Shown: positions 1-16,364 of the stretch, piece by piece
Layout: each line of letters begins with the position of its first letter
How positions within the stretch are numbered: position 1 is the first letter of the stretch
Virus record (IMG/VR): IMGVR_UViG_2531839664_000031
Reading direction: 5' to 3' (one strand)
From: a virus
Lineage: Duplodnaviria; Heunggongvirae; Uroviricota; Caudoviricetes
Length of the DNA: 17,813 nt
Position numbers and translations under genes: made by a program
The notes under the pieces: model-generated
Told to the model about the DNA's origin: nothing
The model's input: the letters and a program-made list of their open reading frames with translations, nothing else
Databases searched by the model: none

Positions 1-981
1 AGGCTTCCGCTTATTTGCGAAGGCGGAGTTCGACCGCCTCTGGAAAAAATGATGCCACTGCTGGATAAGCTGCGTGAGCAGTACGGGGTCGGACCGGTAT
101 GCAGCGAACTGCATATTGCCCCGTCAACGTATTACCATTGTCAGCAACAGCGACATCATCCGGATAAACGCAGTGCCCGTGCGCAGCACGATGACTGGCT
201 GAAGAGAGAGATACAGCGCGTATACGATGAAAATCACCAGGTATACGGTGTGCGTAAAGTCTGGCGTCAGTTGTTACGGGAAGGTATCAGAGTGGCCAGA
301 TGCACTGTGGCACGTCTCATGGCAGTTATGGGACTTACCGGTGTTCTCCGGGGTAAAAAGGTCCGCACTACCGTCAGCCGGAGAGCCGTTGCCGCAGGCG
401 ACCGCGTAAACCGTCAGTTCGTGGCAGAACGTCCAGACCAGTTGTGGGTGGCTGATTTTACCTGGGTAAGCACATGGCAGGGCTTCGTTTATGTGGCGTT
501 CATCATTGATGTGTTCGCCGGATACATCGTGGGATGGCGGGTCTCATCATCCATGGAAACGGCATTCGTGCTGGATGCACTGGAGCAGGCGTTGTGGGCC
601 CGTCGGCCGTCCGGCACAATCCACCACAGTGATAAAGGTTCTCAGTATGTATCGCTGGCCTACACGCAGCGGCTTAAGGAAGCCGGCTTACTGGCATCAA
701 CAGGGAGTACTGGTGACTCGTATGACAACGCGATGGCGGAGAGCATCAATGGCCTTTACAAAGCGGAGGTAATACACCGTAAGCGCTGGAAAAACCGTGC
801 AGAAGTGGAACTGGCCACACTAACGTGGGTGGACTGGTATAACAATCGACGATTGCTGGGAAGGCTGGGCCATACTCCTCCGGCAGAAGCAGAAAAAGCT
901 TATTATGCTTCCATCGGAAACAATGATCTGGCAGCCTGAGTTCACAGATAAAACACTCTCCAGGAAACCCGGGGCGGTTCA
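1..981 (+). mobile_element. Partial IS3-family insertion sequence (IS629/IS1203/IS3411-like), 3' portion; the window starts inside the element
   Basis: orfA tail in frame 2 (..FAKAEFDRLWKK, stop 50-52) overlaps the orfB start in the -1 frame at an A6 run (44-49), the usual IS3-family frameshift layout. 296-aa orfB follows. Right terminus ..CCGGGGCGGTTCA ends at 981 (TG..CA-type end). Specific IS name is from memory of the OrfB sequence. Confidence 0.6.
49..939 (+). CDS. IS3-family transposase OrfB (DDE/rve integrase-like catalytic subunit), IS629/IS1203-like
   Basis: 296-aa ORF with typical IS3-family OrfB features: ..QLWVADFTW.., ..HHSDKGSQY.., ..YDNAMAES.. and a C-terminal ..LGHTPPAEAE.. 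tail. Starts in the -1 frame overlapping the orfA stop. Confidence 0.85.
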   Translation: MMPLLDKLREQYGVGPVCSELHIAPSTYYHCQQQRHHPDKRSARAQHDDWLKREIQRVYDENHQVYGVRKVWRQLLREGIRVARCTVARLMAVMGLTGVLRGKKVRTTVSRRAVAAGDRVNRQFVAERPDQLWVADFTWVSTWQGFVYVAFIIDVFAGYIVGWRVSSSMETAFVLDALEQALWARRPSGTIHHSDKGSQYVSLAYTQRLKEAGLLASTGSTGDSYDNAMAESINGLYKAEVIHRKRWKNRAEVELATLTWVDWYNNRRLLGRLGHTPPAEAEKAYYASIGNNDLAA

Positions 982-1143: not shown

Positions 1144-2635
1144 CCACTTCAGAAAGCCAGTTCCGTCAGAAAGACCAGCAACTAAGTCTGGTTGAAGAGA
1201 CGGAGGCCTTCCTGTGCTCTGCACTGGCACGTGCCGAAGAAAAGATCGAAGAAGATGAACGGGAAATAGAACATCTGCAGACTCAGATAGAAAAACTGCG
1301 CCGGATGCTGTTCGGTACCCGTTCTGAAAAACTGCGTCGTGAAGTTGAACAGGCTGAGGCCCTGCTGAAACAACGCGAACAGGACAGCGATCGTTACAGT
1401 GGGCGGGAAGACGCTCCACAGGTTCCCCGCCAGTTGAGACAGCCGCGCCATCGTCGTCCGTTACCGGCACACCTTCCCCATGCAATACACCGTCTGGAGT
1501 CTGAAGAAAGCTGTTGCCCGGAGTGTGGCGGTGAGCTGGATTATCTGGAGGAAGTCAGTGCAGAACAACTGGAACTGGTGAGCAGCGCCCTGAAAGTGAT
1601 CCGCACTGTTCGGGTAAAAAAGCCTGTACAAAATGTGACTGCATCGTTGAAGCACCGGCGCCGTCCCGCCCGATAGAGCGTGGTATCGCGGGCCCCGGAT
1701 TACTTGCCCGCGTGTTAACGGGAAAATACTGCGAACAGCTGCCACTGTATCGTCAGAGTGAAATCTTTGCCCGACAGGGTGTCGAACTGAGCCGTGCATT
1801 ACTCTCCAACTGGGTTGACGCGTGCTGCCAGTTAATGACTCCGCTGAATGATGCCCTGTACCGTTATGTGATGAATACCCGCAAGCTTCACACTGACGAC
1901 ACACCGGTAAAGGTACTGGCACTGGGCCTGAAAAGACGAAAACAGGGCGCATCTGGACGTATGTCCGGAATGATCGCAATGCGGGTTCGTCATCTCCTCC
2001 GGCGGTCTGGTTCGCGTACTCACCGAACCGGCAGGGGAAACACCCGGAGCAACACCTCCGCCCCCTGCAGGCGGATGCGTTCAACGGTTACGATCGGCTG
2101 TTCAGTGCAGAACGTGAAGATGGTGCGCTGACAGAAGTTGCGTGCTGAGCCCATGTCCGGAGAAAAATCCACGATGTATACATCAGCAGCAAAAGTGCGA
2201 CGGCAGAAGAAGCCCTGAAGCGCATCAGTGAACTGTACGCCATCGAGGATGAAATACGGGGATTACCAGAGTCAGAGCGTCTTGAAGTCAGGCAGCAGCG
2301 AAGCAAAGCGTTACTGACGTCGCTGCATGAATGGATGGTGGAGAAGAATGGCACGCTGTCGAAAAAATCCAGACCAGGCGAAGCGTTCAGCTATGTACTG
2401 AATCAGTGGGACGCCCTCTGTTATTACAGTGATGACGGTCTGGCGGAGGCGGACAATAACACAGCGGAAAGAGCGCTTCGTGCCGTCTGTCTCGGGAAAA
2501 AGAATTACATGTTCTTCGGTAGCGATCACGGCGGCGAGCGTGGAGCACTGCTGTACGGGCTGATCGGCACCTGCCGTCTGAACGGTATCGATCCGGAAGC
2601 GTATCTGCGCCATATTCTGAGCGTACTACCGGAAT
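1137..2635 (+). pseudogene. IS66-family transposase (TnpC-like), inactivated by frameshifts and a nonsense codon and truncated at its 3' end by IS3
   Basis: Three consecutive ORFs in frames 0, 2 and 1 (1137-1676, 1712-2131, 2335-2673) together read as one IS66-type transposase: coiled-coil N-terminus with LFGTRSEKL, zinc-finger CPECGG..KACTKCDC, IERGIAGPGLLA, DDTPVKVLA, then ..GKKNYMFFGSD... Frame change at the A6 run 1616-1621, a second near 1925-1945, in-frame TGA at 2146-2148 where Trp is expected (ACWAHVRR context), and the reading frame runs into the IS3 left end at 2636. No ATG start and no tnpA/tnpB upstream. Confidence 0.75.
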
Positions 2636-2700
2636 TGATCTTACCCAGCAATAGTGGACACGCGGCTAAGTGAGTAAACTCTCAGTCAGAGGTGACTCAC

Positions 2701-3000
2701 ATGACAAAAACAGTATCAACCAGTAAAAAACCCCGTAAACAGCATTCGCCTGAATTTCGCAGTGAAGCCCTGAAGCTTGCTGAACGCATCGGTGTTACTG
2801 CCGCAGCCCGTGAACTCAGCCTGTATGAATCACAGCTCTACAACTGGCGCAGTAAACAGCAAAATCAGCAGACGTCTTCTGAACGTGAACTGGAGATGTC
2901 TACCGAGATTGCACGTCTCAAACGCCAGCTGGCAGAACGGGATGAAGAGCTGACCATCCTCCAAAAGGCCGCGACATACTTCGCGAAGCGCCTGAAATGA
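2701..3000 (+). CDS. insE: IS3 transposase OrfA (InsE), HTH DNA-binding subunit
   Basis: 99-aa product [29 protein letters not shown].. with a C-terminal leucine-zipper-like segment. ATG at 2701 (the ORF track starts 3 codons earlier at a GTG). Confidence 0.85.
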
Positions 3001-3862
3001 AGTATGTCTTTATTGAAAAACATCAGGCTGAGTTCAGCATCAAAGCAATGTGCCGCGTGCTCCGGGTGGCCCGCAGCGGCTGGTATACGTGGTGTCAGCG
3101 GCGGACAAGGATAAGTACATGTCAGCAGTTCCGCCAACACTGCGACAGCGTTGTCCTCGCGGCTTTTACCCGGTCAAAACAGCGTTACGGTGCCCCACGC
3201 CTGACGGATGAACTGCGTGCTCAGGGTTACCCCTTTACGTAAAAACCGTGGCGGCAAGCCTGCGCCGTCAGGGACTGAGGGCAAAGGCCTCCCGGAAGTT
3301 CAGCCCGGTCAGCTACCACGCACACGGCCTGCCTGTGTCAGAAAATCTGTTGGAGCAGGATTTTTACGCCAGTGGCCCGAACCAGAAGTGGGCAGGAGAC
3401 ATCACGTACTTACGTACAGATGAAGGCTGGCTGTATCTGGCAGTGGTCATTGACCTGTGGTCACGTGCCGTTATTGGCTGGTCAATGTCGCCACGCATGA
3501 CGGCGCAACTGGCCTGCGATGCCCTGCAGATGGCGCTGTGGCGGCGTAAGAGGCCCCGGAACGTTATCGTTCACACGGACCGTGGAGGCCAGTACTGTTC
3601 AGCAGATTATCAGGCGCAACTGAAGCGGCATAATCTGCGTGGAAGTATGAGCGCAAAAGGTTGCTGCTACGATAATGCCTGCGTGGAAAGCTTCTTTCAT
3701 TCGCTGAAAGTGGAATGTATCCATGGAGAACACTTTATCAGCCGGGAAATAATGCGGGCAACGGTGTTTAATTATATCGAATGTGATTACAATCGGTGGC
3801 GGCGGCACAGTTGGTGTGGCGGCCTCAGTCCGGAACAATTTGAAAACCAGAACCTCGCTTAG
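2997..3862 (+). pseudogene. insF: IS3 transposase OrfB (InsF), frameshifted
   Basis: Two ORFs (2997-3242 and 3248-3862) together read as Ins[23 protein letters not shown].. then ..[27 protein letters not shown]... The first ends ..GYPFT* and the second picks up ..[11 protein letters not shown].. in another frame, consistent with loss of one A near 3237-3240 (TTTACGTAAAAACC, where NVKTVAAS is expected). Confidence 0.8.
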
Positions 3863-4415
3863 GCCTGTGTCCATATTACGTGGGTAGGATCAGCTAACCT
3901 ACATGTGCAAAGCATGAAATTGGCCTCAGATTAATGTTAAGCGTCTTGCCGGACGCGTAATGTTAACTGGGGCTTTTCTCTATCTGCCTTTTGGTGTTCA
4001 TGCCTGAGGCAGATAGCCTCAAGCACCCGCAGCAATTCTAACTATCCAATAGATCAATGCCAACTTCTTTTCCTGCAACATCTCTCATCATAAGTGACCC
4101 AAATTCATCCAATCAGCACAAAAGAAACATTTAAAGCGTGAATGCTACCGAACGTTCATTTCAATTACATCGTTTTGATTTTTAACAGTTTTCACCTCAA
4201 CAAATCAAATGGCATTAGCATTCATCATGGAAGAAAGACTGATAAAAATGATCATTTTCAATGACTTATGATCACACCGGGTATTGCCAAGTCATTCCTT
4301 TTACGCCAGGATACCCACAAGTGAGTAGTCGAGGAGAGTTTGCCAATTTTTGCGATATAAATTTCAATGTCCGAAGAACCATTAATTGTTAATTGATTCT
4401 GTATAAGGTATTAAC

Positions 4416-5513
4416 ATGACAATTTCATATATTCCTATTCTGAAAGCGAAACGTTCTGAGTTATCAGCTTTATCGCAGCTATCCATTGAAAAGAAATCAA
4501 AAATTTTGCCATTACTCGAAATTGAACCAGTGCCAATTGACCCTGATTCAGGTATTGCCTTAAAGAGTTATAACGAGACTCTTATAGAGTTCGGAAAGAA
4601 AGTCTCAAAATCTTGCTCAGATATGCAAGGTGTTTATATTGATGGATTATTAATTGAAGAGCATTTTATTTCTCCTGAAGATCATTACCCTATAATAAAT
4701 GCGGTTAATCAAGTTAGAGATATGGGGATAAGAGTTATTCCTGTCAGTTCACCAACTCGCCCATCTAACTATAAAAGAGCGATTGATGAATTAATGCAGA
4801 ATGAAATATGCTTGAGATTAACCACGTTAGATCTGGTTAACCCACAATTAATAACGCATTACATTAATCATCTGGGAATTCCTTTATCAAATATTGATAT
4901 AATTATTGACTTAAGAGATGAGTTAACCGAGGATAAAATTAATTCCGGCGAACTATATACTTTGGCAATGGGATTGATAAACAATCTGGCGCACCTCAAT
5001 GAATACAGAAAAGTGATTCTTTCTGGGGGTTCATTTCCTACAGATCTCAGTGATATTTCTGTTGGTCTATATTCTCAACCTCGAATCGAGTGGATTTTAT
5101 GGCAGAGTTTAATGAATAGAAAAGAACTTGCCAGAAATGTGATTTATAGTGATTATGGAGTACAGCACCCCGACTTTAATAGGCTTTCGACGCGATTCCC
5201 TAGCGTATCTGCCAGCGTCAGATACTCTGGAGATAATGACTTTTGGGTATTTCGAGGAAGAGTAGCTAATCGCTTTGGTTATGAACAATATGGTAAACAT
5301 AGTGAGGATATTCTTGCTCATCGAGAATATTCAGGGCCTACATTCTGTGCGGGAGATAGAGACATAGAATATTATGCAAACGAGTATCAAGCCTACAAAG
5401 CCAATCCCTCTGGTAACTATAAATTTGGTAGCCCAGAGGTATGGCGTAGGATTGGGCAAAACCATCACATAACTAAGGTTGTTGAGCAACTCGCCACTCT
5501 TTACGGGCTTTAA
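4416..5513 (+). CDS. Uncharacterised 365-aa protein; resembles, from memory, proteins annotated as 'beta family protein' (the sce7725-type partner of sce7726-family proteins)
   Basis: 1.1-kb ORF in AT-rich DNA, which is unlikely by chance. ATG at 4416 preceded by AAGGT at 4402-4406. N-terminus MTISYIPILKAKRSELSAL. Alternating hydrophobic strand-like segments (YIPIL, VYIDGLL, IRVIPV, ICLRL, IDIIIDL, KVILSGG, VIYSDYG) suggest an alpha/beta fold. No recognisable catalytic motif. Family recollection is unverified. Confidence 0.7.
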   Translation: MTISYIPILKAKRSELSALSQLSIEKKSKILPLLEIEPVPIDPDSGIALKSYNETLIEFGKKVSKSCSDMQGVYIDGLLIEEHFISPEDHYPIINAVNQVRDMGIRVIPVSSPTRPSNYKRAIDELMQNEICLRLTTLDLVNPQLITHYINHLGIPLSNIDIIIDLRDELTEDKINSGELYTLAMGLINNLAHLNEYRKVILSGGSFPTDLSDISVGLYSQPRIEWILWQSLMNRKELARNVIYSDYGVQHPDFNRLSTRFPSVSASVRYSGDNDFWVFRGRVANRFGYEQYGKHSEDILAHREYSGPTFCAGDRDIEYYANEYQAYKANPSGNYKFGSPEVWRRIGQNHHITKVVEQLATLYGL

Positions 5514-6051
5514 GTTTAACTCGAACAGCTTCACGAAGCTCGCCAACATCCATACTATTGGCGAGTTTTGACCATAAGACGCGTTTAGGTTTATTTTTCA
5601 AATTCTGTAGCTCCCCTACATCACTTAATAGGGAAAGCAATTCATCTTTCCAAAGAAGCATTGTTAAGGAAAGTTTGTCCACTTGTGGATTCAACTTGCT
5701 AGTTCGAATTGTTTTTAAATGGATACCTTGCCGTGCACCTTGCGTAACTTGCTTTATCCCCCACCATGATGGAACTATGCTTAAAGCATCATAAAGATGG
5801 CAATCAGAGACAACCAAAGTTACTTTATCCATCACTGATGAGTAATGTTGCACCTGCGCTGGTAATCTGAGCAAGTTATCACTCTTGCTCTTCAACTCAT
5901 AACCATGTATAAGCCCATTGATCACTGCTATATCAGCTCTGCTAGCCCCTAGATTCATCGTAAACTCATCAATGATTAGGGTGTCAGGATCTTTATGATG
6001 ATCTCTCAGAATCTTGGCATGCACAGCCTTTCTTACATCAATGTCTCTCAT
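5473..6051 (-). CDS. Uncharacterised 192-aa protein with a PD-(D/E)xK-like nuclease motif; resembles, from memory, 'sce7726 family' proteins
   Basis: Convergent with the 365-aa gene and overlapping its 3' end by 41 nt. Motif ..IIDEF..-..RADIAVINGLIHGYELKSKSD.. fits the D-x11-E-x-K signature of restriction-endonuclease-fold nucleases. Basic C-terminal tail. No clear Shine-Dalgarno before ATG 6051, so the start is uncertain. Confidence 0.6.
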   Translation of the reverse strand: MRDIDVRKAVHAKILRDHHKDPDTLIIDEFTMNLGASRADIAVINGLIHGYELKSKSDNLLRLPAQVQHYSSVMDKVTLVVSDCHLYDALSIVPSWWGIKQVTQGARQGIHLKTIRTSKLNPQVDKLSLTMLLWKDELLSLLSDVGELQNLKNKPKRVLWSKLANSMDVGELREAVRVKLKARKEWRVAQQP

Positions 6052-6373
6052 ACCATAGTTGCGCTTTCATCGACTCTCTCAAGCCATGATTCTATATCAT
6101 GGTTCGCATGAATGCCATTTGATATGACCAGTGGTTAAACATTGCACAGAAAAGTGGATGTGTATTTTAACAAAAGCAATGACGGCTAACCATGTTGGTA
6201 TGTCGATAAAATGTTTCAACGTAAGCATTATCTGTTCCGCCCTTTCGGGCGGCCTCCTGATGTTCTGAGGGTGCAGAAATCCCTCCGGTTAAGGATTAAA
6301 TTTTATTTACAGAACTGAATTTAATTATTCAGATATACGTATCTGTAACCTTACTAACCTACTCACTGGATGC

Positions 6374-6847
6374 CTATTTCATAAAAATAATCCAGTGGGT
6401 TTTATCGTTTTTTCCTGTTCGTTGACCGATAACAGGTTTTCTGTCGGTCAGTGCCAATATCTGGCGAACAGGTATTTGCGTTTCATTCCATTTAAAAATC
6501 AGAACGCCGTATGGACGCAACACACGAAAGGCTTCTTTAAATCCCTGCCGCAAATCATCACGCCAGGTATCTTTATTCAGCCGTCCATATTTCTTTCCCA
6601 TCCTGGCGTTATCACCAACACGCTCAAGATGCGGAGGATCGAATATAACCATCGAAAAAGATGCGTCTGCAAATGGTAGTGCACGAAAATCAGCTATCAG
6701 ATCAGGACTGATAATCAGGCGTCGTCCATCACACAATGTGTGCTCTTCCTTTCTGATATCGCTAAATATCGCCCGGTCGTCATTCTTATCGAACCAGAAC
6801 ATGCGACTGCCACAGCACATATCAAGAATGGTTGCCGGTGCACTCAC
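6374..6847 (-). CDS. Small SAM-dependent methyltransferase-like protein (putative phage DNA methyltransferase)
   Basis: 157 aa. Motif I-like LDMCCGS near the N-terminus and motif IV-like FDPPH (DPPY/H type) about 60 residues later. GTG start with AGGAGG 6-8 nt upstream, overlapping the stop of the upstream gene by 4 nt. Confidence 0.6.
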   Translation of the reverse strand: MSAPATILDMCCGSRMFWFDKNDDRAIFSDIRKEEHTLCDGRRLIISPDLIADFRALPFADASFSMVIFDPPHLERVGDNARMGKKYGRLNKDTWRDDLRQGFKEAFRVLRPYGVLIFKWNETQIPVRQILALTDRKPVIGQRTGKNDKTHWIIFMK

Positions 6848-7260
6848 TGCGCTACCTCCTGAAAATTACCCTGATAGAAAGCCAGTACACGCTGCATAGC
6901 TTCGCTCTTCCGGCACTCGCGACAGATTATATTCAGGCGCCTGTCGTAGCGGCGTATTTCTCCGTCTGGTAATGAATAAACCAGGTCCGGGTCGCTCTTT
7001 TTTTTCACTGCTGCTTTCGACATCTTTTTGCGGGCCTTTATCCAGTCCTTACGTGCCTGTTCAGACGGAAATAACCCGTAGCCGGAGTTGTATAAATCGC
7101 CACTGGCAACCAGCTCTCTGGCAAGAACACTCATCAGATATCTTGTCGCACCTGTCTTGGCTTCCAGTTGCCGTAACGTCTCGCGACCGCTCAGACGTAC
7201 AAGTTCAACAACCTGCCCTTTAATTTTTTCCCGCTCTTCTGATGTAAATACTTTTGCCAT
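6844..7260 (-). CDS. Hypothetical prophage protein (138 aa from ATG 7260)
   Basis: Translationally coupled within the minus-strand operon. GGAGG 5 nt upstream of ATG 7260 (the track ORF starts 5 codons earlier at TTG). Basic, lysine-rich central segment; no motif recognised. Confidence 0.55.
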   Translation of the reverse strand: MAKVFTSEEREKIKGQVVELVRLSGRETLRQLEAKTGATRYLMSVLARELVASGDLYNSGYGLFPSEQARKDWIKARKKMSKAAVKKKSDPDLVYSLPDGEIRRYDRRLNIICRECRKSEAMQRVLAFYQGNFQEVAQ

Positions 7261-7275
7261 AGGTGCCTCCGGCAA

Positions 7276-8037
7276 TCACTTTTCCGACACAATACGGCTG
7301 GAGGAATCGAAAATCTGTCGAACAATATCCCGGTGCTTGTTCAGCTCCCGCAGCGCGGCGCAGACTCGCTCCCACTTCTGGACATGATTTTTCGCCCGAC
7401 GCAGTTCGCGGTTTGCCATATGCAGCGATGGTAAAACCAGGTCATCCGCTCGCGTTTCAGTAAACGATGGCAGCGACTGCACAATGTCCGCCACCGTTTC
7501 TGTTTTAATATCTTCCTGTGTTGCAGCCTCCTGTACTGGTAACGCAACACCTGTGGGCTGAGGAAAGGCCTTACCATCAGTTTCCGCTACCGATGCTGCT
7601 TTCGGCTCTGCTGGTAAATTATCGCCCGGTATGCAGTAACGAAATTTACCGTTCTGGTTTACGCGAATCAGGCGTCCTTTGCTGATAGCCATTGCCAGCG
7701 TTGAAGCTACTTTGCGTGATGTGGTACCGAACAATGTAGCCAACTCATCCGCCGTTTGTGGTCCACGTTGTTCAATCGCCGCAGTTAAATCGCACTCCGA
7801 AATTTTCGCGACTGTTGCCGTGGTGGTTTCTTCCGGCAGTTCTGCCTGCTCTGGCTGTTCCTGCTGAACGTTGTTATCAGCCACACGCCAGGTGTATACG
7901 CTTTTATCAACGAAACCAGCCTTTTTCAGTTCCCACAGCTCGTTCAGTACCTCTTCACGACTGATATCAAGTCGCGCAGCCAGTTCTACCGACGTGGCTT
8001 TTCCCATTGCTTTCAGTGCGTCAAATACAGTTTCCAT
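7276..8037 (-). CDS. Prophage protein with two winged-helix/HTH-like segments (ydaW-like position downstream of ydaV)
   Basis: ATG 8037 with GGAGG about 9 nt upstream (the track ORF starts at TTG 8055). Segments ..[29 protein letters not shown].. and ..[32 protein letters not shown].. look like HTH/wHTH units separated by an acidic, low-complexity linker. Confidence 0.55.
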
Positions 8038-8058
8038 TAAAACGTCCTCCAACAAAAA

Positions 8059-8805
8059 TTACTCCGCAATTCCTGGCTGACCAACATTCGGACGCCAGCT
8101 CTCCCAGTTAAAATTCACCCATCGCCCGCCGTTCATGGTCATGCGATCCATAATCCGCTCACCGAGCAATGTTTTCATGGCCTCATAGTTCAGGTTTGTC
8201 AGCATCCCCACGCTGCGCATCGACGCTGTCCGGCGATCAACAATCTGATGCAGCACCACCTGCTCGTTTTTCGTCTCGCGCTGAATGCCAATTTCATCAA
8301 GAACCAGCAGATCCACTTCGCACAGCTCCCGCAAAAATTTTTCGCCTGACTGCCCGTCGTCATAGCTGGCGTGCAGGGCGCTCATAACATCAGCCACGGT
8401 AACCACAATCACTGTCTGACCGTCTTTCAGCAGGCGATTCCCGATAGCTGCCGCTAAGTGATTCTTCCCGGTACCAGGTTTTCCGCTGAACGAAAAATTT
8501 GTACACCCGGTCATCAGTTCATCGGCGATGGATTTCGCCTGGCTTAACGCGTATCGCTGGCCGTCGTTCTGCACCTGGTAATTCGCAAACGAGCATTTAC
8601 GGTGCAACGGCTGGATGCCAGAGCGATTCAGAATTTTTTCCACCCGCAACTGACGATTCAGGCGGTTGATCTCCTCGCAACGTTTCTGTCCTTCAGCAAG
8701 TTGCCACTCACGCCACTCCGCAACCGTTCTGAATGGGGCGGTTACATGTGGTGGGGTCAGTCTGCGGATACGCTCCAGAACGCCGCCTGTCGCAATATTT
8801 TTCAT
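8059..8805 (-). CDS. ydaV: DnaC-like replication protein / helicase loader (AAA+ ATPase)
   Basis: 248 aa. Walker A GKPGTGKNHLAAAIG and Walker B LLVLDEIG. Sits directly after ydaU as in lambdoid O/P-type replication modules. Confidence 0.85.
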   Translation of the reverse strand: MKNIATGGVLERIRRLTPPHVTAPFRTVAEWREWQLAEGQKRCEEINRLNRQLRVEKILNRSGIQPLHRKCSFANYQVQNDGQRYALSQAKSIADELMTGCTNFSFSGKPGTGKNHLAAAIGNRLLKDGQTVIVVTVADVMSALHASYDDGQSGEKFLRELCEVDLLVLDEIGIQRETKNEQVVLHQIVDRRTASMRSVGMLTNLNYEAMKTLLGERIMDRMTMNGGRWVNFNWESWRPNVGQPGIAE

Positions 8806-8811
8806 GGTCTG

Positions 8812-9669
8812 TTACCCCCTGAAGCCTGGCGGGATCGCACTATCCGGTAGCGAAACGGTGTTAACCTGTCGGAGTAACGTCTCAGGTCGAACACCTTTCG
8901 GCGCGAACAAGCCCTGGTATTCATTGGCGATGCTGTGTCGAATCACCTGCTCAGGTGAAAAACCCTGCTGGCGGAATTTTTCCAGCTCCCGTATCGCCCC
9001 GTTAGCGCCCTGCTCCGTTCGAATCGGTTTACGCAATGCCTGGCGAAATTCAACCCACTCACGCCAAAGCGAGACAGAAATCCAGTTCGGCAAAGCAATA
9101 TCCAGAGGGTCAAACTTTTTGACACCTCGATTCCCCCGGGGGGGATTTAGGGGGGGATCTGTTTTTAGATCTTTATCTGTATCTTTATTAGTTGCCTTTG
9201 TGTTGACATCATGTTCAAACACCACTTCAACATCTGTTTGAACACCTGTTAAATTTCTCTCTTGTTTTTTTTGAACATCTGCTTCCTTTCTGCTTCTTCT
9301 GGCCTGAACAGATGCTTTTCCTGCGGCTGATTTTTTGGTTAATTTTTCCCTGACTGATGCCAGATCTTCCTCAATCCGAAGATGCACCCATTCCTCGCCG
9401 TTATCGCAAAAAAACTCCTGCAAGGATGGTTCAACATCAGCCCATCGCTCGTTAGTCAGACGGGCAATTTTTGCCAGTCTGTTTTTAGGTATTGGCTTTC
9501 CTGTTTGCCAGTAATTGAACATCAGCAACAAATACGCACCATGCTCCTCTGCTGACAAATGCATGGTGTCAGCCAAGTAATCAGCTATGTACAGTTGCAT
9601 GTATGGTAATGCGGCCATAATTGCCCCGTATGATGCTGCCCGGTGGCTTAGAATAAGCACAAACAGCAT
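8812..9669 (-). CDS. ydaU: Putative prophage replication initiation protein (DUF1376-like N-terminus)
   Basis: 285-aa ORF from the first ATG. The conserved N-terminal pattern (MQLYIADYLADTMHLSAEEHGAYLLLM) begins at internal Met codons (9600 or 9618), so the true start may be internal. Contains homopolymer tracts at 9133-9156. Confidence 0.8.
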   Translation of the reverse strand: MLFVLILSHRAASYGAIMAALPYMQLYIADYLADTMHLSAEEHGAYLLLMFNYWQTGKPIPKNRLAKIARLTNERWADVEPSLQEFFCDNGEEWVHLRIEEDLASVREKLTKKSAAGKASVQARRSRKEADVQKKQERNLTGVQTDVEVVFEHDVNTKATNKDTDKDLKTDPPLNPPRGNRGVKKFDPLDIALPNWISVSLWREWVEFRQALRKPIRTEQGANGAIRELEKFRQQGFSPEQVIRHSIANEYQGLFAPKGVRPETLLRQVNTVSLPDSAIPPGFRG

Positions 9670-9681
9670 GGAAACTTTTGC

Positions 9682-10104
9682 TTAATGAACAATGACAGAA
9701 TCTTCGGAAGACCCGCCGCCGCTGAAATGCGCTTTCCGGTAAACGGCCTGGACTGCATCATCATGCGCATCAATTGCCGTACTCAACGCTTCCTGCGCCG
9801 CCAGTAATGCACGGCGTTCCAGGGTATCGAAGATGCAGAGTCGGTGACGCAGCTCGCGCGGAATAATTGCCAGAACCGCAGGGATCAGTTTCTGAATTTT
9901 TTCCCTTTGCGCTTTCGTTTCACCTTTCAACCAACGGTGATAGATATTCTGCTGATTGTTCCAGTCCTTGCCTGGTACCAGGGGCAATTCGCCGCCCCCC
10001 TGGCGCAGATATTCTTCAGTAATTGCGTTAGCGACCCACGCCTGCCCTTTTTCGGCTGCCAGGGCTAACAACACTGATTCGATGTGCTCATGCCTGATTT
10101 TCAT
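9682..10104 (-). CDS. ydaT: Rac prophage protein YdaT (reported toxic when derepressed)
   Basis: 140 aa. AGGAG 7 nt upstream of ATG 10104. Overlaps the ydaS 3' end by 17 nt. Confidence 0.8.
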   Translation of the reverse strand: MKIRHEHIESVLLALAAEKGQAWVANAITEEYLRQGGGELPLVPGKDWNNQQNIYHRWLKGETKAQREKIQKLIPAVLAIIPRELRHRLCIFDTLERRALLAAQEALSTAIDAHDDAVQAVYRKAHFSGGGSSEDSVIVH

Positions 10105-10363
10105 GAATCAACTCCTGTGCATTTTGCGTGTTAGCCTTACATCCAACAGGTAAACCATCGGTCGGATTAGGGTAGATATCAGGCCGGAGTTCATGAGGTG
10201 TAACCTCGAAATTCGTAGCCTCTGCGATACGCAATACCTTTTCAGGGCTTAACTGACTACGTCCAGTAGCAACGAGGCTAATCATTGATTGCGAACAACC
10301 AGCCAGCGCGGCCAAACAAGACTGTCGTACACGATTTTTTTTCAAATATTCATCTAATGTCAT
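10088..10363 (-). CDS. ydaS: Cro-like HTH regulator YdaS
   Basis: HTH segment ..SCLAALAGCSQSMISLVATGR... ATG 10363 (MTLDEYL..) has AAGGTGA upstream. The track ORF extends to 10402 without a ribosome-binding site, so the start is uncertain. Confidence 0.7.
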   Translation of the reverse strand: MTLDEYLKKNRVRQSCLAALAGCSQSMISLVATGRSQLSPEKVLRIAEATNFEVTPHELRPDIYPNPTDGLPVGCKANTQNAQELIHENQA

Positions 10364-10467
10364 AATGGTCACCTTAGTAATGCTCACAAAAATATTAACC
10401 ATACTAATTTAAATGATCAATACCTATATCAGTTTGAGATTATGAACTGTATTCATAAGATGGTGGT
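10364..10467. promoter_or_regulatory. Divergent ydaS / racR control region with candidate operators
   Basis: AT-rich 104-bp spacer between divergent genes. Inverted repeats TTAGTA(10374-10379)/TACTAA(10402-10407) and TATGAA(10441-10446)/TTCATA(10452-10457), the latter 11 nt upstream of the racR ATG. Confidence 0.5.
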
Positions 10468-10932
10468 ATGAGAAGAAAACGCGAAGAAATCGCATCGCCG
10501 GAAGCTACGCAACGTCTGCGCGCAATCTGGGATGCAAAAAAAAGAGAGCTCAAACTGACTCAGGAGCTTGCTGCCGAGCTAATGGGTTTTGAGGCGCAAT
10601 CTGCGGTTAGCCATTATCTCAACGGAAAGGCTCCACTTAATACTGATGCGGCATTAAAATTCGCTGTATTACTAAGAGTTAAGCCTGAAGAGTTGAGGCC
10701 TGATTTAGCTGATCTGATGAATTACGTCCGTTCCTCAGGAACTTATGACGAAAGTTTCGAAGGCGAAGGTTGGCGGATGGTTAACAAGCAACAAGCTGAT
10801 TTACTAGATCTTTTTGATATCCTTCCCGAATCAGAAAAAGCAAAACTAATCGAAAGACTTAAAGGTCAGAATGAACTCTACAAAGAAGCATTTGAAAATA
10901 TGCTGGCAGCTCAAAAACGCATGAAGAAATAG
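10468..10932 (+). CDS. racR: Rac prophage repressor RacR
   Basis: 154 aa. HTH-like segment ..LKLTQELAAELMGFEAQSAVSHYLNGK.. (lambda cI/XRE-like). Divergent from ydaS-ydaT. Confidence 0.85.
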   Translation: MRRKREEIASPEATQRLRAIWDAKKRELKLTQELAAELMGFEAQSAVSHYLNGKAPLNTDAALKFAVLLRVKPEELRPDLADLMNYVRSSGTYDESFEGEGWRMVNKQQADLLDLFDILPESEKAKLIERLKGQNELYKEAFENMLAAQKRMKK

Positions 10933-10953
10933 CTCCCACCATCTCGTAACTAA

Positions 10954-10978
10954 ACCGCCATTTTTGGCGGTTTTTTTG
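10954..10978 (+). terminator. Intrinsic (Rho-independent) terminator downstream of racR
   Basis: Stem ACCGCCA (10954-10960), loop TTTT, stem TGGCGGT (10965-10971), followed by T6 (10972-10977). Confidence 0.7.
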
Positions 10979-11167
10979 TCCCCTCCGCCCGCCCCCGCCT
11001 TACTTTTTATCAAAAAAACACTAAAAATTTCATTAGGATAGTACATTTTTATCAACGAAATGCATATTTGTGTTGATCATTAATATGAACATAACTAATA
11101 TTATTGCAGAAGCAGCACGGCGCTGTAGGTTTTAGTTCCGCCACCCGGCGTTAAAGGGAGAGATAAA

Positions 11168-11302
11168 ATGGTGCATTACGAAGTAGTTCAGTATTTGATG
11201 GATTGTTGCGGTATCACTTACAGCCAAGCTGTACAGGCTCTACGCAGCAACGACTGGGATCTCTGGCAGGCAGAAGCCGCTATATGCAGCAACAAGATGT
11301 GA
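11168..11302 (+). CDS. ydaG: Small Rac prophage protein YdaG (44 aa)
   Basis: MVHYEVVQYLMDCCGITYSQAVQALRSNDWDLWQAEAAICSNKM. GGGAGAG upstream of the ATG. Below the size cut-off of the ORF track. Confidence 0.65.
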   Translation: MVHYEVVQYLMDCCGITYSQAVQALRSNDWDLWQAEAAICSNKM

Positions 11303-11312
11303 GATTCGCAAA

Positions 11313-11465
11313 ATGCAAAAAATCGACCTCGGCAACAACGAATCCCTAGTGTGTGGCGTGTTCCCCAACCAGGATGGAACGTTCACCGCCATGACGTATA
11401 CCAAAAGCAAAACATTTAAAACTGAAACAGGCGCACGTCGCTGGCTTGCCAAAAATACCAGCTAA
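11313..11465 (+). CDS. ydaF: Small Rac prophage protein YdaF (50 aa)
   Basis: MQKIDLGNNESLVCGVFPNQDGTFTAMTYTKSKTFKTETGARRWLAKNTS, read directly from the sequence. Follows ydaG after 10 nt. Confidence 0.65.
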   Translation: MQKIDLGNNESLVCGVFPNQDGTFTAMTYTKSKTFKTETGARRWLAKNTS

Positions 11466-11889
11466 ACCATTTATTGGATTAATTCAATATTCTTGCTGTA
11501 GGGGTATAGCCGAGGCCACCAAAGCCCGGAGGTGGTGAAATAAAACCGGGCACAACACGAAGGCGCATTTCCGGTATCCATAAAGAGTCGGTCTTGTCTG
11601 TCAAATTTAAATGGTGGGAGTGCGCCTCCGGTTGTGAATAACAACACTGCTGTGTGTAGTCTTGGCGGCATCAGTTTTTTCTTGAAGTTCGACTGATGTC
11701 CGCCCTTTTTAAAGTGAATTTTGTGATGCGGTGAATGCGGCTAAGCGCACGCGGAACAGTTAAAAAGCTATTGTCCTTCGTAGCAGAGTTATGGGTGAAA
11801 TATCCGGCGTTAATTGTTAACTGGTTAACGTCACCTGGAGGCACCAGGCACCGCATCGACAAAATTCATTTGTAAAAATGGAGATAATT

Positions 11890-12111
11890 ATGATTGCTCA
11901 TCACTTCGGAACTGATGAAATACCACGTCAGTGTGTGACCCCTGGCGATTATGTTCTTCATGAAGGCCGGACATATATTGCCTCGGCAAACAATATTAAA
12001 AAGCGAAAACTTTATATTCGTAACCTGACCACAAAAACATGCATTACTGACCGCATGATTAAAGTCTTCCTCGGTCGTGATGGTTTACCTGTAAAGGCGG
12101 AGTCATGGTGA
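11890..12111 (+). CDS. kilR: KilR, FtsZ-targeting cell-division inhibitor of Rac
   Basis: 73 aa from ATG 11890 ([29 protein letters not shown]..), with GGAG 5 nt upstream. The track ORF starts 4 codons earlier. Confidence 0.85.
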
Positions 12112-12281
12112 TGACTAAGAAAATAAAATGTGCTTATCACCTTTGCAATAAAGGAATTGAAGAAAGCAAAAGTATTAAAAGACCACTTCATTTCATGCGT
12201 GGAGTTATCCCAACGACGGAAATGAAAAAATATTGTAGTGAAAATTGTGCCGAAAAAGACCAGATGGCACACGAACTTTAA
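12111..12281 (+). CDS. ydaE: YdaE, small Cys-rich (zinc-binding type) Rac protein, 56 aa
   Basis: [59 protein letters not shown] overlaps the kilR stop (TGATG). C-x4-H-x2-C ... C-x3-C arrangement. Confidence 0.75.
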   Translation: MTKKIKCAYHLCNKGIEESKSIKRPLHFMRGVIPTTEMKKYCSENCAEKDQMAHEL

Positions 12282-12361
12282 CTAACTGACTATTCGAAAC
12301 TGAATTTATGCCAGCAATGGCAGGTGGTCGCTCAACCTTAAAATAGTTATGAGGTTTATCA

Positions 12362-15031
12362 ATGAGTACTGATAAAGAAAATTACGCTCTGTATTGCGAC
12401 GCGAAAAATGATAAAACCAGAAAACGCCTCGGCATCAAAGGCGGCTTTTTCTGGACAGAGGCAAAAAAACTTTCTGTTGCGGTTTCACGCTGCATTGCTG
12501 CAATGGACGATGCCGGATTTGACGAAGAGGATTTTAAAAAACCCATCCGCGTCCATTTACCCGTTGTGAATGACCTTCCACCGGAAGGTGTGTTTGATAC
12601 TGAATTCTGCAACCGATACGAAAAAGGCGGAGAAGATGGTATCACAATGATACTTATCGCGCCCTCTGTTCCGGACAAACCAGCCAGTACTGACAATACC
12701 AACGTCAACGGCGAAGACATGGCTAAGATTGAGGAGAATATGCTTCTTCCGGTTTCAGGTCAGATTCTGCCTGTTCGCTGGCTGGCGCAACACAACAGCG
12801 AAAAACCGCTCACGCACGTTTCACTGGACAAACTGCGCGCATTACATAACGCACAGGATGAAAAACTTCCCGCCGTTACCGCGCTGGCCATCTCAAATAA
12901 AGCAGTGCAACTCGAACCGCTGGAGATTCGGGATTTGTACAAACTGGTGCGAGACACTGACAAAGTTTTCCCCGCCCCCGTAAATTCGGACCTGGGACTG
13001 ATGACCTCTTTTATCGAAGCATACCTGGGCGCTGACTACACCGATCGCGGTCTGCTTACAAAAGAGTGGATGAAAGGAAATCGTGTTTCACGCATCAGCC
13101 GCACGCCATCCGGCGCTAACGCTGGCGGCGGCATTCTTACCGATCGCGGCGAAGGTTTTGTCCACGATGATGCGTCAGTGGCGCGTGACGTAGCCACTGG
13201 CGTACTGGCCCGTTCAATGGACGTGGATATTTATAACCTTCATCCCGCGCACGCTAAACGCATTGAGGAAATTATCGCTGAAAATAAACCGCCATTTTCT
13301 GTGTTTTTCAGCAAATTCATCACCATGCCGGGCCACAAGGATTACTCCCGCGCCATCGTGGTTGCGTCCGTGAAAGAAGCACCAATTGGTATAGAGGCTA
13401 CTCCCCACCGTGTCACCGAATACCTGAATAAGGTGCTGACTGAAACCGATCATGCCACCCCTGATCCGGAAATCGTGGATATTGCCTGTGGTCGCTCCTC
13501 TGCCCCGATGCCGCAGCGTGTAACAAAAGAAGGAAAACAGGATGATGAAGAAAAACTGCAACCATCTTGCGCAATGGCAGATGAACAGGCAACGGCTGAA
13601 ACAGTGGAACCGGATGCAACTGAACATCATCAGGACACGCAGCCGCTGGATGCTCAGTCACAGGTAAATTCTGTTGATGCGAAATATCAGAAACTGCGGG
13701 CAGAACTCCATGAAGCCCGGAAAAACATTCCGCCCCAAAATCCTGTCGATGCAGATAAATTACTGGCTGCCTCTCGCGGAGAATTTGTTGAAGGGATTAG
13801 CGACCCGAATGATCCGAAATGGGTTAAGGGAATTGAAACCCGAGATTCTGTGAACCAGAACCAGCCCGAATCGGAACAAAACAACCAGAAAGCGGAACAA
13901 AACAGCCCAAATGCACAGAAAAACGAGCCAGAAACGAAACAATCTGAACCAGTAGCGCAACAGGAACCGGAAAAAGTCTGTGCCGCCTGCGGTCAGAGCG
14001 GTGGCGGCAACTGCCCTGATTGTGGCGCGGTGATGGGCGACACCACGTATCAGGAAACCTTTAATGAAGAAAATCTGGATGAATCTCAGGAAAAAGATCC
14101 GGAGGAAATGGAAGGCCCTGAACATCCGCACAATGAGAATGCTGGCAGCGATCCGCATCGCGATTGCAGTGACGAAACTGGCGAAGTCGCAGATCCCGTA
14201 ATCGCAGGAGACATAGAGCCTGGTATTTATTACGGAATTTCGAATGAGAATTACCACGCTGGTCCCGGTGTCAGTAAGTCTCAGCTCGACGACATTGCTG
14301 ATACTCCGGCTCTGTATTTGTGGCGTAAAAATGCCCCAGTGGACACCACAAAGACAAAAACGCTCGATTTAGGAGCCGCTTTCCACTGCCGTGTACTTGA
14401 ACCGGAAGAATTCAGTAACCGCTTTATCATAGCACCTGAATTTAATCGCCGTACAAACGCCGGAAAAGAAGAAGAGAAAGCGTTTCTGATGGAATGCGCA
14501 AGCACAGGAAAAACGGTTATCACTGCGGAAGAAGGCCGGAAAATTGAACTCATGTATCAAAGCGTTATGGCTTTGCCGCTGGGGCAATGGCTTGTTGAAA
14601 GCGCCGGACACGCTGAATCATCAATTTACTGGGAAGATCCTGAAACAGGAATTTTGTGTCGGTGCCGTCCGGACAAAATTATCCCTGAATTTCACTGGAT
14701 CATGGACGTGAAAACTACGGCGGATATTCAACGATTCAAAACCGCTTATTACGACTACCGCTATCACGTTCAGGATGCATTCTACAGTGACGGTTATGAA
14801 GCACAGTTTGGAGTGCAGCCAACTTTCGTTTTTCTGGTTGCCAGCACAACTATTGAATGCGGACGTTATCCGGTTGAGATTTTCATGATGGGCGAAGAAG
14901 CAAAACTGGCAGGCCAGCAGGAATATCACCGCAATCTGCGGACCCTGGCTGACTGCCTAAATACCGATGAATGGCCAGCTATTAAGACGTTATCACTGCC
15001 CCGCTGGGCTAAGGAGTATGCAAATGATTAA
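12362..15031 (+). CDS. recE: RecE, exodeoxyribonuclease VIII (5'-3' dsDNA exonuclease of the RecET system)
   Basis: 889 aa. C-terminal third (..[47 protein letters not shown]..) is the RecE PD-(D/E)xK exonuclease domain. Acidic, low-complexity linker contains a C-x2-C-x7-C-x2-C motif (13979-14023). GAGG 8 nt upstream of the ATG. 3' end overlaps recT. Confidence 0.9.
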
Positions 15032-15833
15032 GCAACCACCTATCGCAAAAGCCGATCTGCAAAAAACTCAGGGAAACCGTGCACCAGCAGCAGTTAACGA
15101 TAAGGATGTGCTGTGCGTGATTAACAGCCCGGCAATGAAAGCGCAACTGGCAGCAGCTCTGCCACGTCACATGACAGCGGAACGCATGATCCGCATTGCT
15201 ACAACAGAAATCCGTAAAGTACCGGAACTAAGAAACTGTGACTCGACGAGTTTTATCGGTGCCATCGTACAGTGTTCACAGCTCGGACTTGAGCCAGGTA
15301 GCGCCCTCGGTCATGCATATTTACTGCCTTTTGGTAATAAAAACGAAAAGAGCGGTAAAAAGAACGTTCAGCTAATCATTGGCTATCGCGGCATGATTGA
15401 TCTGGCTCGCCGTTCTGGTCAAATCGCCAGCCTGTCAGCCCGTGTTGTCCGTGAAGGTGACGAGTTTAGCTTCGAATTTGGCCTTGATGAAAAGTTAATA
15501 CACCACCCGGGAGAAAACGAAGATGCCCCGGTTACCCACGTCTATGCTGTCGCAAGACTGAAAGACGGAGGTACTCAGTTTGAAGTTATGACGCGCAAAC
15601 AGATTGAGCTGGTGCGCAGCCTGAGTAAAGCTGGTAATAACGGGCCGTGGGTAACTCACTGGGAAGAAATGGCAAAGAAAACGGCTATTCGTCGCCTGTT
15701 CAAATATCTGCCCGTATCAATTGAGATCCAGCGTGCAGTATCAATGGATGAAAAGGAACCACTGACAATCGATCCTGCAGATTCCTCTGTATTAACCGGG
15801 GAATACAGTGTAATCGATAATTCAGAGGAATAA
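15024..15833 (+). CDS. recT: RecT, single-strand annealing recombinase
   Basis: 269 aa from ATG 15024 ([23 protein letters not shown]..), with AAGGAG at 15011-15016. Overlaps the recE stop by 8 nt. The track ORF begins further upstream inside recE. Confidence 0.9.
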
Positions 15834-15889
15834 TTCAGCCTGGCGGTGTAATGCACCGCCAACTTGAAATATTTTTTATGAGAAAAATT

Positions 15890-16084
15890 ATGAGATATGA
15901 CAATGTTAAACCATGTCCATTTTGTGGTTGTCCATCAGTAACGGTGAAAGCCATTTCAGGATATTACCGAGCGAAGTGTAACGGATGCGAATCCCGAACC
16001 GGTTATGGTGGAAGTGAAAAAGAAGCACTCGAAAGATGGAATAAACGAACCACTGGAAATAATAATGGAGGTGTTCATGTATAA
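15890..16084 (+). CDS. ralR: RalR (Lar), restriction-alleviation protein, reported as the toxin of a type I toxin-antitoxin pair
   Basis: 64 aa from ATG 15890 (MRYDNVKPCPFCGCPSVTVKAISGYYRAKCNGCESRTGYGG..), with a C-x2-C ... C-x2-C zinc-ribbon pattern. A partner antisense sRNA (RalA) is expected nearby, but I could not place it from sequence. Confidence 0.85.
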   Translation: MRYDNVKPCPFCGCPSVTVKAISGYYRAKCNGCESRTGYGGSEKEALERWNKRTTGNNNGGVHV

Positions 16085-16286
16085 AATTACCGCCACTATT
16101 GAAAAGGAAGGTGGCACTCCTACTAACTGGACAAGATATTCAAAATCTAAACTAACGAAATCAGAATGCGAAAAAATGCTCTCAGGTAAAAAAGAAGCAG
16201 GCGTTTCCAGAGAGCAGAAAGTAAAACTGATAAATTTTAATTGCGAGAAACTTCAGTCCTCGAGAATTGCATTGTATTCAAATTAA
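16077..16286 (+). CDS. ydaC: YdaC, small Rac prophage protein (69 aa)
   Basis: ATG 16077 with GGAGG 6 nt upstream, overlapping the ralR stop. MYKITATIEKEGGTPTNWTRYSKSKLTKSECEKML.. Confidence 0.8.
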   Translation: MYKITATIEKEGGTPTNWTRYSKSKLTKSECEKMLSGKKEAGVSREQKVKLINFNCEKLQSSRIALYSN

Positions 16287-16364
16287 AACTTCATAGCTGA
16301 TTATTAATAATCAACATCGGGCGTCAATTTCAGTCTAACATTGGCGCCTGCCAGAGGTGATGCG

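Follow-up and report, generated by a model that had tools for sequence, protein, structure and literature searches.

A convergent beta-family/sce7726-family gene pair in a prophage of Escherichia coli O121:H19 as a candidate two-gene anti-phage module

A 17,813-nucleotide stretch of DNA from a Caudoviricetes record of IMG/VR (IMGVR_UViG_2531839664_000031; the whole stretch is hereafter named the window) was analysed. It carries two convergent genes, one encoding a 365-amino acid beta-family protein and the other a 192-amino acid protein of the sce7726/P4-cII family. This pair is conserved across phyla, is carried by phages, prophages and defence islands, and is homologous to parts of two validated anti-phage systems, P4 gop-beta-cII and PD-lambda-2. 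On balance, and with modest confidence, we favour the explanation that the pair is a self-contained two-gene module carried as phage cargo, which protects the lysogen against other phages, with the nuclease acting as effector and the beta protein as its controller or sensor. An initial annotation, made from the letters of the window, had proposed an uncharacterised defence-like system at this site. That interpretation was partly supported: linkage of the two genes, their carriage and their homology to the two validated systems support a defence-like conserved pair, but "uncharacterised" was an overstatement, since the proteins match the cII family and PD-Lambda-2_C.

The 192-amino acid protein is a member of the sce7726 family (NCBIfam NF033832 sce7726_fam, 191.1 bits against a cut-off of 70) and also matched the PADLOC model "cll" of P4 gop-beta-cII (2.4e-28, residues 14-183). 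PF26915 Phage_P4_cII is annotated on every homologue, including the 99%-identical P0001, and RefSeq classes P4 cII itself as an sce7726 family protein. Residues E29, D40, E52 and K54 (the last two forming an E52-x-K54 motif) were invariant in 80/80 homologues, which bears out the nuclease-type motif noticed in the initial annotation. In the structural model these residues are located on strands 25-32, 37-44 and 48-54 of the restriction-endonuclease-like alpha/beta core typical of the PD-(D/E)xK superfamily, and an extra helical domain occupies the C-terminal part (residues ~125-187). By its modelled fold, the small protein is a predicted PD-(D/E)xK nuclease. Its comparators within the superfamily are SPO1766 (PDB 3dnx), which was the closest structural neighbour of the model, the Can2 nuclease domain, NucS and the type II restriction endonucleases; unlike them, the window protein adds the C-terminal helical domain and has a triosephosphate isomerase (TIM)-barrel partner gene as an obligatory companion. 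The nuclease family comprises 3,459 representatives of 50%-identity clusters at E ≤ 1e-3, and PHROGs lists both this family and the beta family as of unknown function.

The 365-amino acid protein matched Pfam PF14350 Beta_protein with 178.3 bits (cut-off 27) over residues 5-356, corresponding to positions 1-341 of the 342 in the profile, and PADLOC PD-Lambda-2_C (PDLC03983) over residues 4-362 (1.8e-41). The match to the PADLOC model of P4 "beta" was weak (2e-4) and limited to the N-terminus (residues 4-40). The model of this protein is a (beta/alpha)8 barrel, in which E15, D165 and D246 are invariant across phyla and R223 and H351 near-invariant, all of them at or near the ends of strands. 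As modelled, the large protein is a TIM barrel with invariant acidic residues in an enzyme-like site, and the earlier statement that it has no recognisable motif did not hold. The names suggested in the initial annotation ("beta family protein" and "sce7726 family protein") were correct according to the Pfam (178 bits) and NCBIfam (191 bits) matches and to the RefSeq labels. The sce7725/sce7726 family models proposed there for checking were right for one gene of the pair: the small protein truly belongs to sce7726_fam, whereas the partner encoded in the window is a Beta_protein and not the sce7725 of the NCBIfam pair. sce7725 was rejected as the partner family because the 365-amino acid protein reached 12.3 bits against a cut-off of 60 and 0/10 diverse beta proteins matched the model.

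An enzyme-like barrel next to a nuclease may also be read as a restriction-modification (R-M)-like system, in which the barrel would modify DNA or the nucleotide pool (DpdA/TGT-type logic), the nuclease would cut unmarked or marked nucleic acid, and the convergent order would set the timing of expression on entry into a new cell. Barrels of the DpdA/TGT type chemically modify DNA or nucleotides and convergent gene order is common in R-M systems; as in convergent type II systems, the nuclease gene of the window converges on an enzyme-like partner in a mobile unit of patchy distribution. We regard this possibility as rather unlikely. The DpdA/TGT matches of the beta protein scored no better than dozens of unrelated TIM barrels, its conserved positions include no cysteines, so that a TGT-like zinc site is unlikely, and, unlike the partner in type II R-M, it is a TIM barrel without methyltransferase motifs. 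In addition, the neutralisation of Gop by beta and its work with HigB/Xre-peptidase modules (see below) are hard to square with a simple modification enzyme. The nuclease gene is preceded, at a distance of 323 bp and on the same strand, by the gene for a small DNA methyltransferase (157 amino acids, DPPH motif; PADLOC MTase_II 237.7 bits, orphan methyltransferase 165.7 bits). This enzyme was rejected as a component of the system: its gene flanks the cassette in 9 O121-type genomes only, and elsewhere its place is taken by unrelated hypothetical genes.

Linkage of the two genes was analysed in three samples: sce7726 relatives taken from one genome per species (78/80 loci with enough sequence), IMG/VR viral contigs (79/80 with enough sequence) and six PD-lambda-2_B-type loci that were chosen blind to sce7726. 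A convergent beta gene adjoined sce7726 in 72/78, 78/79 and 6/6 of these loci, respectively, and Pfam Beta_protein was the partner of sce7726 in 150 of the 157 informative loci. The conserved pairing suggested in the initial annotation was thus confirmed as a near-obligate convergent linkage. In the genome pairs beta was always located immediately 3' of the nuclease gene on the opposite strand, and every pair examined was convergent. The 3' ends overlapped in 70/72 genome pairs (median 47 bp), in 77/78 viral pairs and in 9/9 further loci. Both convergent ORFs (open reading frames) of the initial annotation were recovered in the window with a 3' overlap of this kind (41 bp; Table 1). Neither an intrinsic terminator nor significant RNA structure (z = -1.0 at the overlap) was found at this junction, which indicates that the two transcripts should be mutually antisense. 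The genome pairs came from alpha-, beta-, gamma- and delta-Proteobacteria, Firmicutes, Cyanobacteria/Melainabacteria, Patescibacteria, Acidobacteria, Nitrospirae, Gemmatimonadetes, Chloroflexi and Elusimicrobia, and the convergent pair was also present in Gordonia phages Powerball and DumpsterDude and in Mycobacterium phage Mycofy1. Outside prophages, in PD-lambda-2_B-type loci, the pair often lies beside R-M, NucS, NERD or recombinase genes. These neighbours, together with HicAB in Powerball, agree with the defence-island setting envisaged in the initial annotation.

The pair of Powerball (locus L005, 3725-6684) has the tail genes on one side and the integrase/immunity cassette on the other; it is situated just past HicAB and two small genes, and its nuclease gene is annotated "exonuclease". 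In actinophages this region holds defence genes that are expressed from the prophage. The sce7726 homologue of Mycofy1 (PQ356897.1, 26026-26586; L007, 4001-4561, + strand) is 40% identical and unannotated in GenBank; it converges on and overlaps the annotated gene 30, which encodes a beta-family protein (2.6e-34). Other arrangements were also observed. In four loci of Melainabacteria/Obscuribacterales the nuclease (245-276 amino acids) is partnered by a DUF4388/DUF4384 protein of ~713 amino acids instead of beta. Three of the four are convergent with an overlap of ~10-13 bp, and in L084 another ORF lies between the two genes; a kinase-like gene of ~710 amino acids is located on the other side in L076, L078 and L086. 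In these loci the partner seems to have been exchanged while the architecture was kept. In myxophage Mx4 a single sce7726 homologue stands alone within an operon of early genes. Among the enterobacterial loci, beta was missing only from that of Xenorhabdus koppenhoeferi (L016, 5001-6810, on the contig of viral locus L134), where a 165-amino acid protein-kinase-like fragment and a 241-amino acid ORF with an N-terminus that is phosphatase-like by eye come after the nuclease gene on the same strand.

Genes known to accompany the two families (gop, HigB, Xre-M78 and DUF6932) were searched within 2.5 kb of the 72 genome pairs. None of them was found next to 54 pairs, and the other 18 were accompanied by an Xre-peptidase, by a gene of the HigB or DUF6932 type, or by the two together. 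Xre-M78 was encoded upstream of beta in 8/72 pairs by direct match, and in up to 18/72 when loci with the partner toxin gene only are counted; gop was found in P4 alone (77 loci). A hidden third gene in the cassette was rejected: the small ORFs at 4142-4264 and 4261-4392 had no family matches, and the region 5' of beta could not be aligned among enterobacterial relatives. With 54 of 72 pairs free of accessory genes and no conserved upstream gene in the enterobacterial clade, the pair looks autonomous. In the window cassette, no ORF matched the PADLOC gop model, no HigB-like component A (present in L040 and L050) was encoded within 3860-6400, and the Xre helix-turn-helix plus M78 peptidase component B was absent from the window. 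Compared with the known systems, the cassette is therefore a variant without gop and HigB.

One of the closest of these systems is gop-beta-cII of the phage satellite P4 (Rst_gop_beta_cll), which protects against lambda and P1 and lies in a P4 region described as non-essential (Rousset et al. 2022, PMC9122126). In P4, Gop is toxic without beta and beta neutralises it (PMC9122126). The phage accessory gene orf184 triggers gop-beta-cII killing (bioRxiv 10.1101/2023.04.06.535777). In P4, beta is located at 651-1718 on the + strand and cII at 1746-2540 on the - strand, with gop directly upstream of beta. The window thus shares with P4 both protein families, the same convergent order and residence in a mobile viral element of E. 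coli, and the two beta proteins are both Pfam Beta_protein members, though distant. There are also differences. P4 cII has 264 amino acids, with a C-terminal extension, against the 192 of the window protein; P4 beta and cII have no overlap, and a terminator stands between them, whereas the genes of the window overlap; and the P4 system occupies the P4 hotspot, whereas the cassette of the window occupies a slot of lambdoid prophages.

PD-lambda-2 consists of a HigB-like protein A, a toxic Xre-peptidase B and a P4-beta-like protein C; defence depends on C and works through abortive infection (Vassallo et al. 2022, PMC9519451). The large protein of the window is PD-Lambda-2_C-like over its full length. 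PD-lambda-2 as published has three genes without cII, whereas PD-lambda-2-type loci elsewhere, which account for 18/72 of the genome pairs, add a convergent cII/sce7726 gene after C: in 6/6 loci (L088-L093; e.g. L089, 3706-6954) the order was HigB, Xre/M78, Beta_protein and then a convergent, overlapping Phage_P4_cII gene. The Xre-M78 protein of L050 matched PD-Lambda-2_B with 465 bits. The search for PD-lambda-2_B-type homologues listed environmental matches only; the matches in E. coli plasmids were plain HigA. Judged from these gene orders and family matches, the beta/cII pair is apparently the conserved core common to gop-beta-cII and PD-lambda-2-type loci, to which the toxin modules would be optional additions.

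The cassette belongs to a prophage of E. coli O121:H19. Positions 2635-17813 of the window are colinear with O121:H19 chromosomes, and O121:H19 genomes showed 100% identity over 3880-6380, where RefSeq names the two genes as given above. Positions 1-2690 form a nest of insertion sequences (IS), with an IS3-family orfB, IS66-type fragments and then IS3. The segment common to other strains (2.4 kb) spans from 3893 to about 6301-6332. In strains without IS3 this segment was found inside lambdoid prophages, between hokD and a replication module (DUF977, ydaUV-like), and the hokD-adjacent position was seen in three different lambdoid prophage backbones; Escherichia phage Rac-SA53 also carries the cassette. 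Hence, the site is not one between IS elements and a prophage, as had been described: the cassette lies inside the prophage, and the IS nest is a later disruption. The AT-rich island delimited earlier at 3893-6373 was real as to composition (GC of 0.34-0.42 at ~4000-6400, and of 0.50-0.59 on both sides), but its limits were not those of the cassette, since the common segment ends before 6373 and the left end is a sok antitoxin RNA that abuts the right end of IS3 (Rfam RF01794, 80.9 bits against a gathering score of 59). By this match, the left end is the hokD/sok control region, split from hokD by the IS insertion, and not cassette DNA. In strains without the IS, hokD lies directly beyond sok; in O121 genomes IS3 splits the two, and no hokD coding sequence was seen in the IS nest (1-2690) of the window, which indicates that the hok/sok locus is disrupted. 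In the Qin prophage of K-12 the same hokD-adjacent slot is occupied by relBE, so that this position is a variable cargo slot.

The cassette was present in 93 of 5426 complete E. coli genomes, with at least 99% DNA identity and both ORFs intact. The minimal pair also exists in E. coli as a second lineage (L094, 3134-4763; L095; L096) of 203 member sequences, with a nuclease of 206 amino acids that is 54% identical, a beta protein of 355 amino acids and an overlap of 59 bp. Its slot, which is not that of the window, is between the lysis genes and the terminase gene Nu1 of lambdoid prophages. The patchy distribution and the low GC fit a horizontally moving accessory cargo. The absence of gop, HigB and the Xre-peptidase, together with a neighbourhood disrupted by IS elements, could mean instead that a system of three or four genes has lost its toxin module and decayed to a non-functional remnant. 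We hold this to be most improbable: the ORFs and the catalytic residues are intact and the DNA is nearly identical across the 93 genomes, most pairs across phyla have the accessory-less form, which E. coli holds as two distinct lineages in different prophage slots, and the limits of the cassette are the same in strains without the IS.

The features of the window and those of the DUF4388/DUF4384 partner genes are collected in Table 1. In the 5' flank of the nuclease gene there is one candidate promoter-like site (6118..6089), the count of consensus sites being no higher than in shuffled sequences, and a GC-rich hairpin read from the sequence (~6240-6256). No promoter-like sites were found on the + strand of the 5' flank of beta (4029..4415). 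The IS3 transposase is apparently broken in the window: the orfB frame ends at 3242, and the reading continues at 3248..3862 in a different frame. A near-identical O121 genome in RefSeq has an intact OrfAB with only the programmed frameshift, and, judging by the coordinates, the window seems to differ from this reference by 1 bp inside the IS.

Table 1. Coordinates of the cassette, of neighbouring features of the window and of the alternative partner genes (the latter numbered within their own loci)
Feature	Coordinates	Strand	Assignment or basis
beta-family gene, 365 amino acids	4416..5513	+	predicted TIM-barrel protein; PD-Lambda-2_C-like; distant relative of P4 beta
sce7726/P4-cII-family gene, 192 amino acids	5473..6051	-	predicted PD-(D/E)xK nuclease with C-terminal helical domain
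Dual-coding overlap of both convergent 3' ends, 41 bp	5473..5513	.	ORF coordinates
5' flank of the nuclease gene, part of the mobile cassette	6052..6332	-	edge of the segment common to other E. coli prophages
5' flank of the beta gene inside the cassette; conserved third gene absent	4029..4415	+	ORF list, family scans, alignment
sok antitoxin RNA	3858..4028	-	Rfam RF01794
Small DNA methyltransferase gene	6374..6847	-	flank of O121-type genomes
IS3 transposase gene	2692..3862	+	apparently broken
ALIL frameshifting pseudoknot	8..123	+	IS3-family element at the start of the window
RalA small RNA, antitoxin of the RalR type I toxin	16083..16261	-	225 bits; Rac-like recombination region
DUF4388/DUF4384 partner genes	L076 4057-6195, L078 5684-7828, L084 3888-6029, L086 5744-7885	-	Melainabacteria loci

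In the explanation that we favour, the small PD-(D/E)xK nuclease would be the probable effector, cutting the DNA of the invader or that of the infected host (abortive infection). The beta TIM barrel would most likely control this nuclease, restraining it until infection; alternatively, it may sense or process a phage-derived cue through its enzyme-like site. The convergent, overlapping transcription of the two genes is possibly regulatory.

Several points weigh against this explanation. The structural matches of the beta barrel were generic and gave no chemistry, and a sequence-profile search of the PDB found no relative of either the 192-amino acid nuclease or the 365-amino acid beta protein. 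P4 cII is reportedly named after a clear-plaque (lysogeny) phenotype and defined by clear-plaque mutants. The P4 locus for which protection against phages was shown has three genes (PMC9122126), and the parts with demonstrated toxicity are Gop (PMC9122126) and the Xre-peptidase (PMC9519451), not beta or cII. Finally, the published PD-lambda-2 clone (ECOR42 QOYB01000002, 228989-232396; PMC9519451) stops 396 bp past gene C, which is too short for an intact copy of cII; if a convergent cII gene exists in ECOR42, an intact copy was not required for the defence against lambda.

The pair might instead be a phage-lifestyle or DNA-metabolism module, serving the lysogeny decision, recombination or repair of the carrying phage and not defence. 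The clear-plaque origin of cII would suit such a role, as would the closest structure, SPO1766, which we take to be an MmcB-family protein, and the name "DNA repair protein MmcB-like" given by one source to a homologue of the small protein. Rac-like prophages also place the cassette beside replication and recombination genes, and the solitary homologue of Mx4 lies among early genes. This role seems unlikely to us, since the pair is dispensable and patchy (93/5426 genomes), occupies different cargo slots of unrelated prophage backbones and occurs outside prophages beside R-M genes. The P4 region, moreover, is described as non-essential, and its three-gene locus protects against other phages (PMC9122126).

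A pure addiction module, similar to toxin-antitoxin systems, would stabilise the prophage by means of a nuclease toxin and a beta antitoxin and would have no anti-phage role. In P4, beta is an antidote to Gop (PMC9122126). The cargo next to the pair is also of the toxin-antitoxin type: hokD/sok and doc, relBE in the same slot of Qin, and HicAB adjacent in Powerball. Protein toxin-antitoxin pairs are normally co-transcribed, whereas the beta/nuclease pair is always convergent and lacks the single operon of type II systems, and a 365-amino acid barrel with an invariant, catalytic-looking constellation is unlike the typical small, labile antitoxin. For this reason a pure addiction role is quite improbable, although addiction and defence are compatible with each other.

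Both protein families, the two related systems and the annotations of the genes are already known, and other mentions of the two families in the literature are incidental annotations. What appears to be new with respect to the literature is that a core of nuclease plus TIM barrel unites both systems and usually occurs without the known accessories, the window being its minimal form. A 2024 survey listed gop-beta-cII as of "unknown function, Proteobacteria only" and placed PD-lambda-2 under HigB-type translation inhibition. We tentatively put forward a broader proposal, about which we are somewhat doubtful: the beta/cII pair could be an autonomous anti-phage system of many phyla and of phages, in which the barrel would govern the nuclease by a mechanism new to defence, with the overlap as a possible means of control, and in which gop, HigB/Xre-peptidase and DUF6932/Xre-peptidase would be interchangeable add-ons. 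The published definitions (gop-beta-cII as three genes restricted to Proteobacteria, PD-lambda-2 without cII) would then be incomplete.

gop-beta-cII and PD-lambda-2 have been treated as unrelated, and the shared core says otherwise. A fourth gene may have been overlooked in the PD-lambda-2 locus, and the rules of PADLOC and DefenseFinder are suggested to miss most members. With the cassette of the window, the roles of beta and cII can be approached in a naturally minimal system. If the explanation proposed here is true, Shiga-toxigenic E. coli O121:H19 and related strains would have in this pair one more defence function, carried by a prophage.

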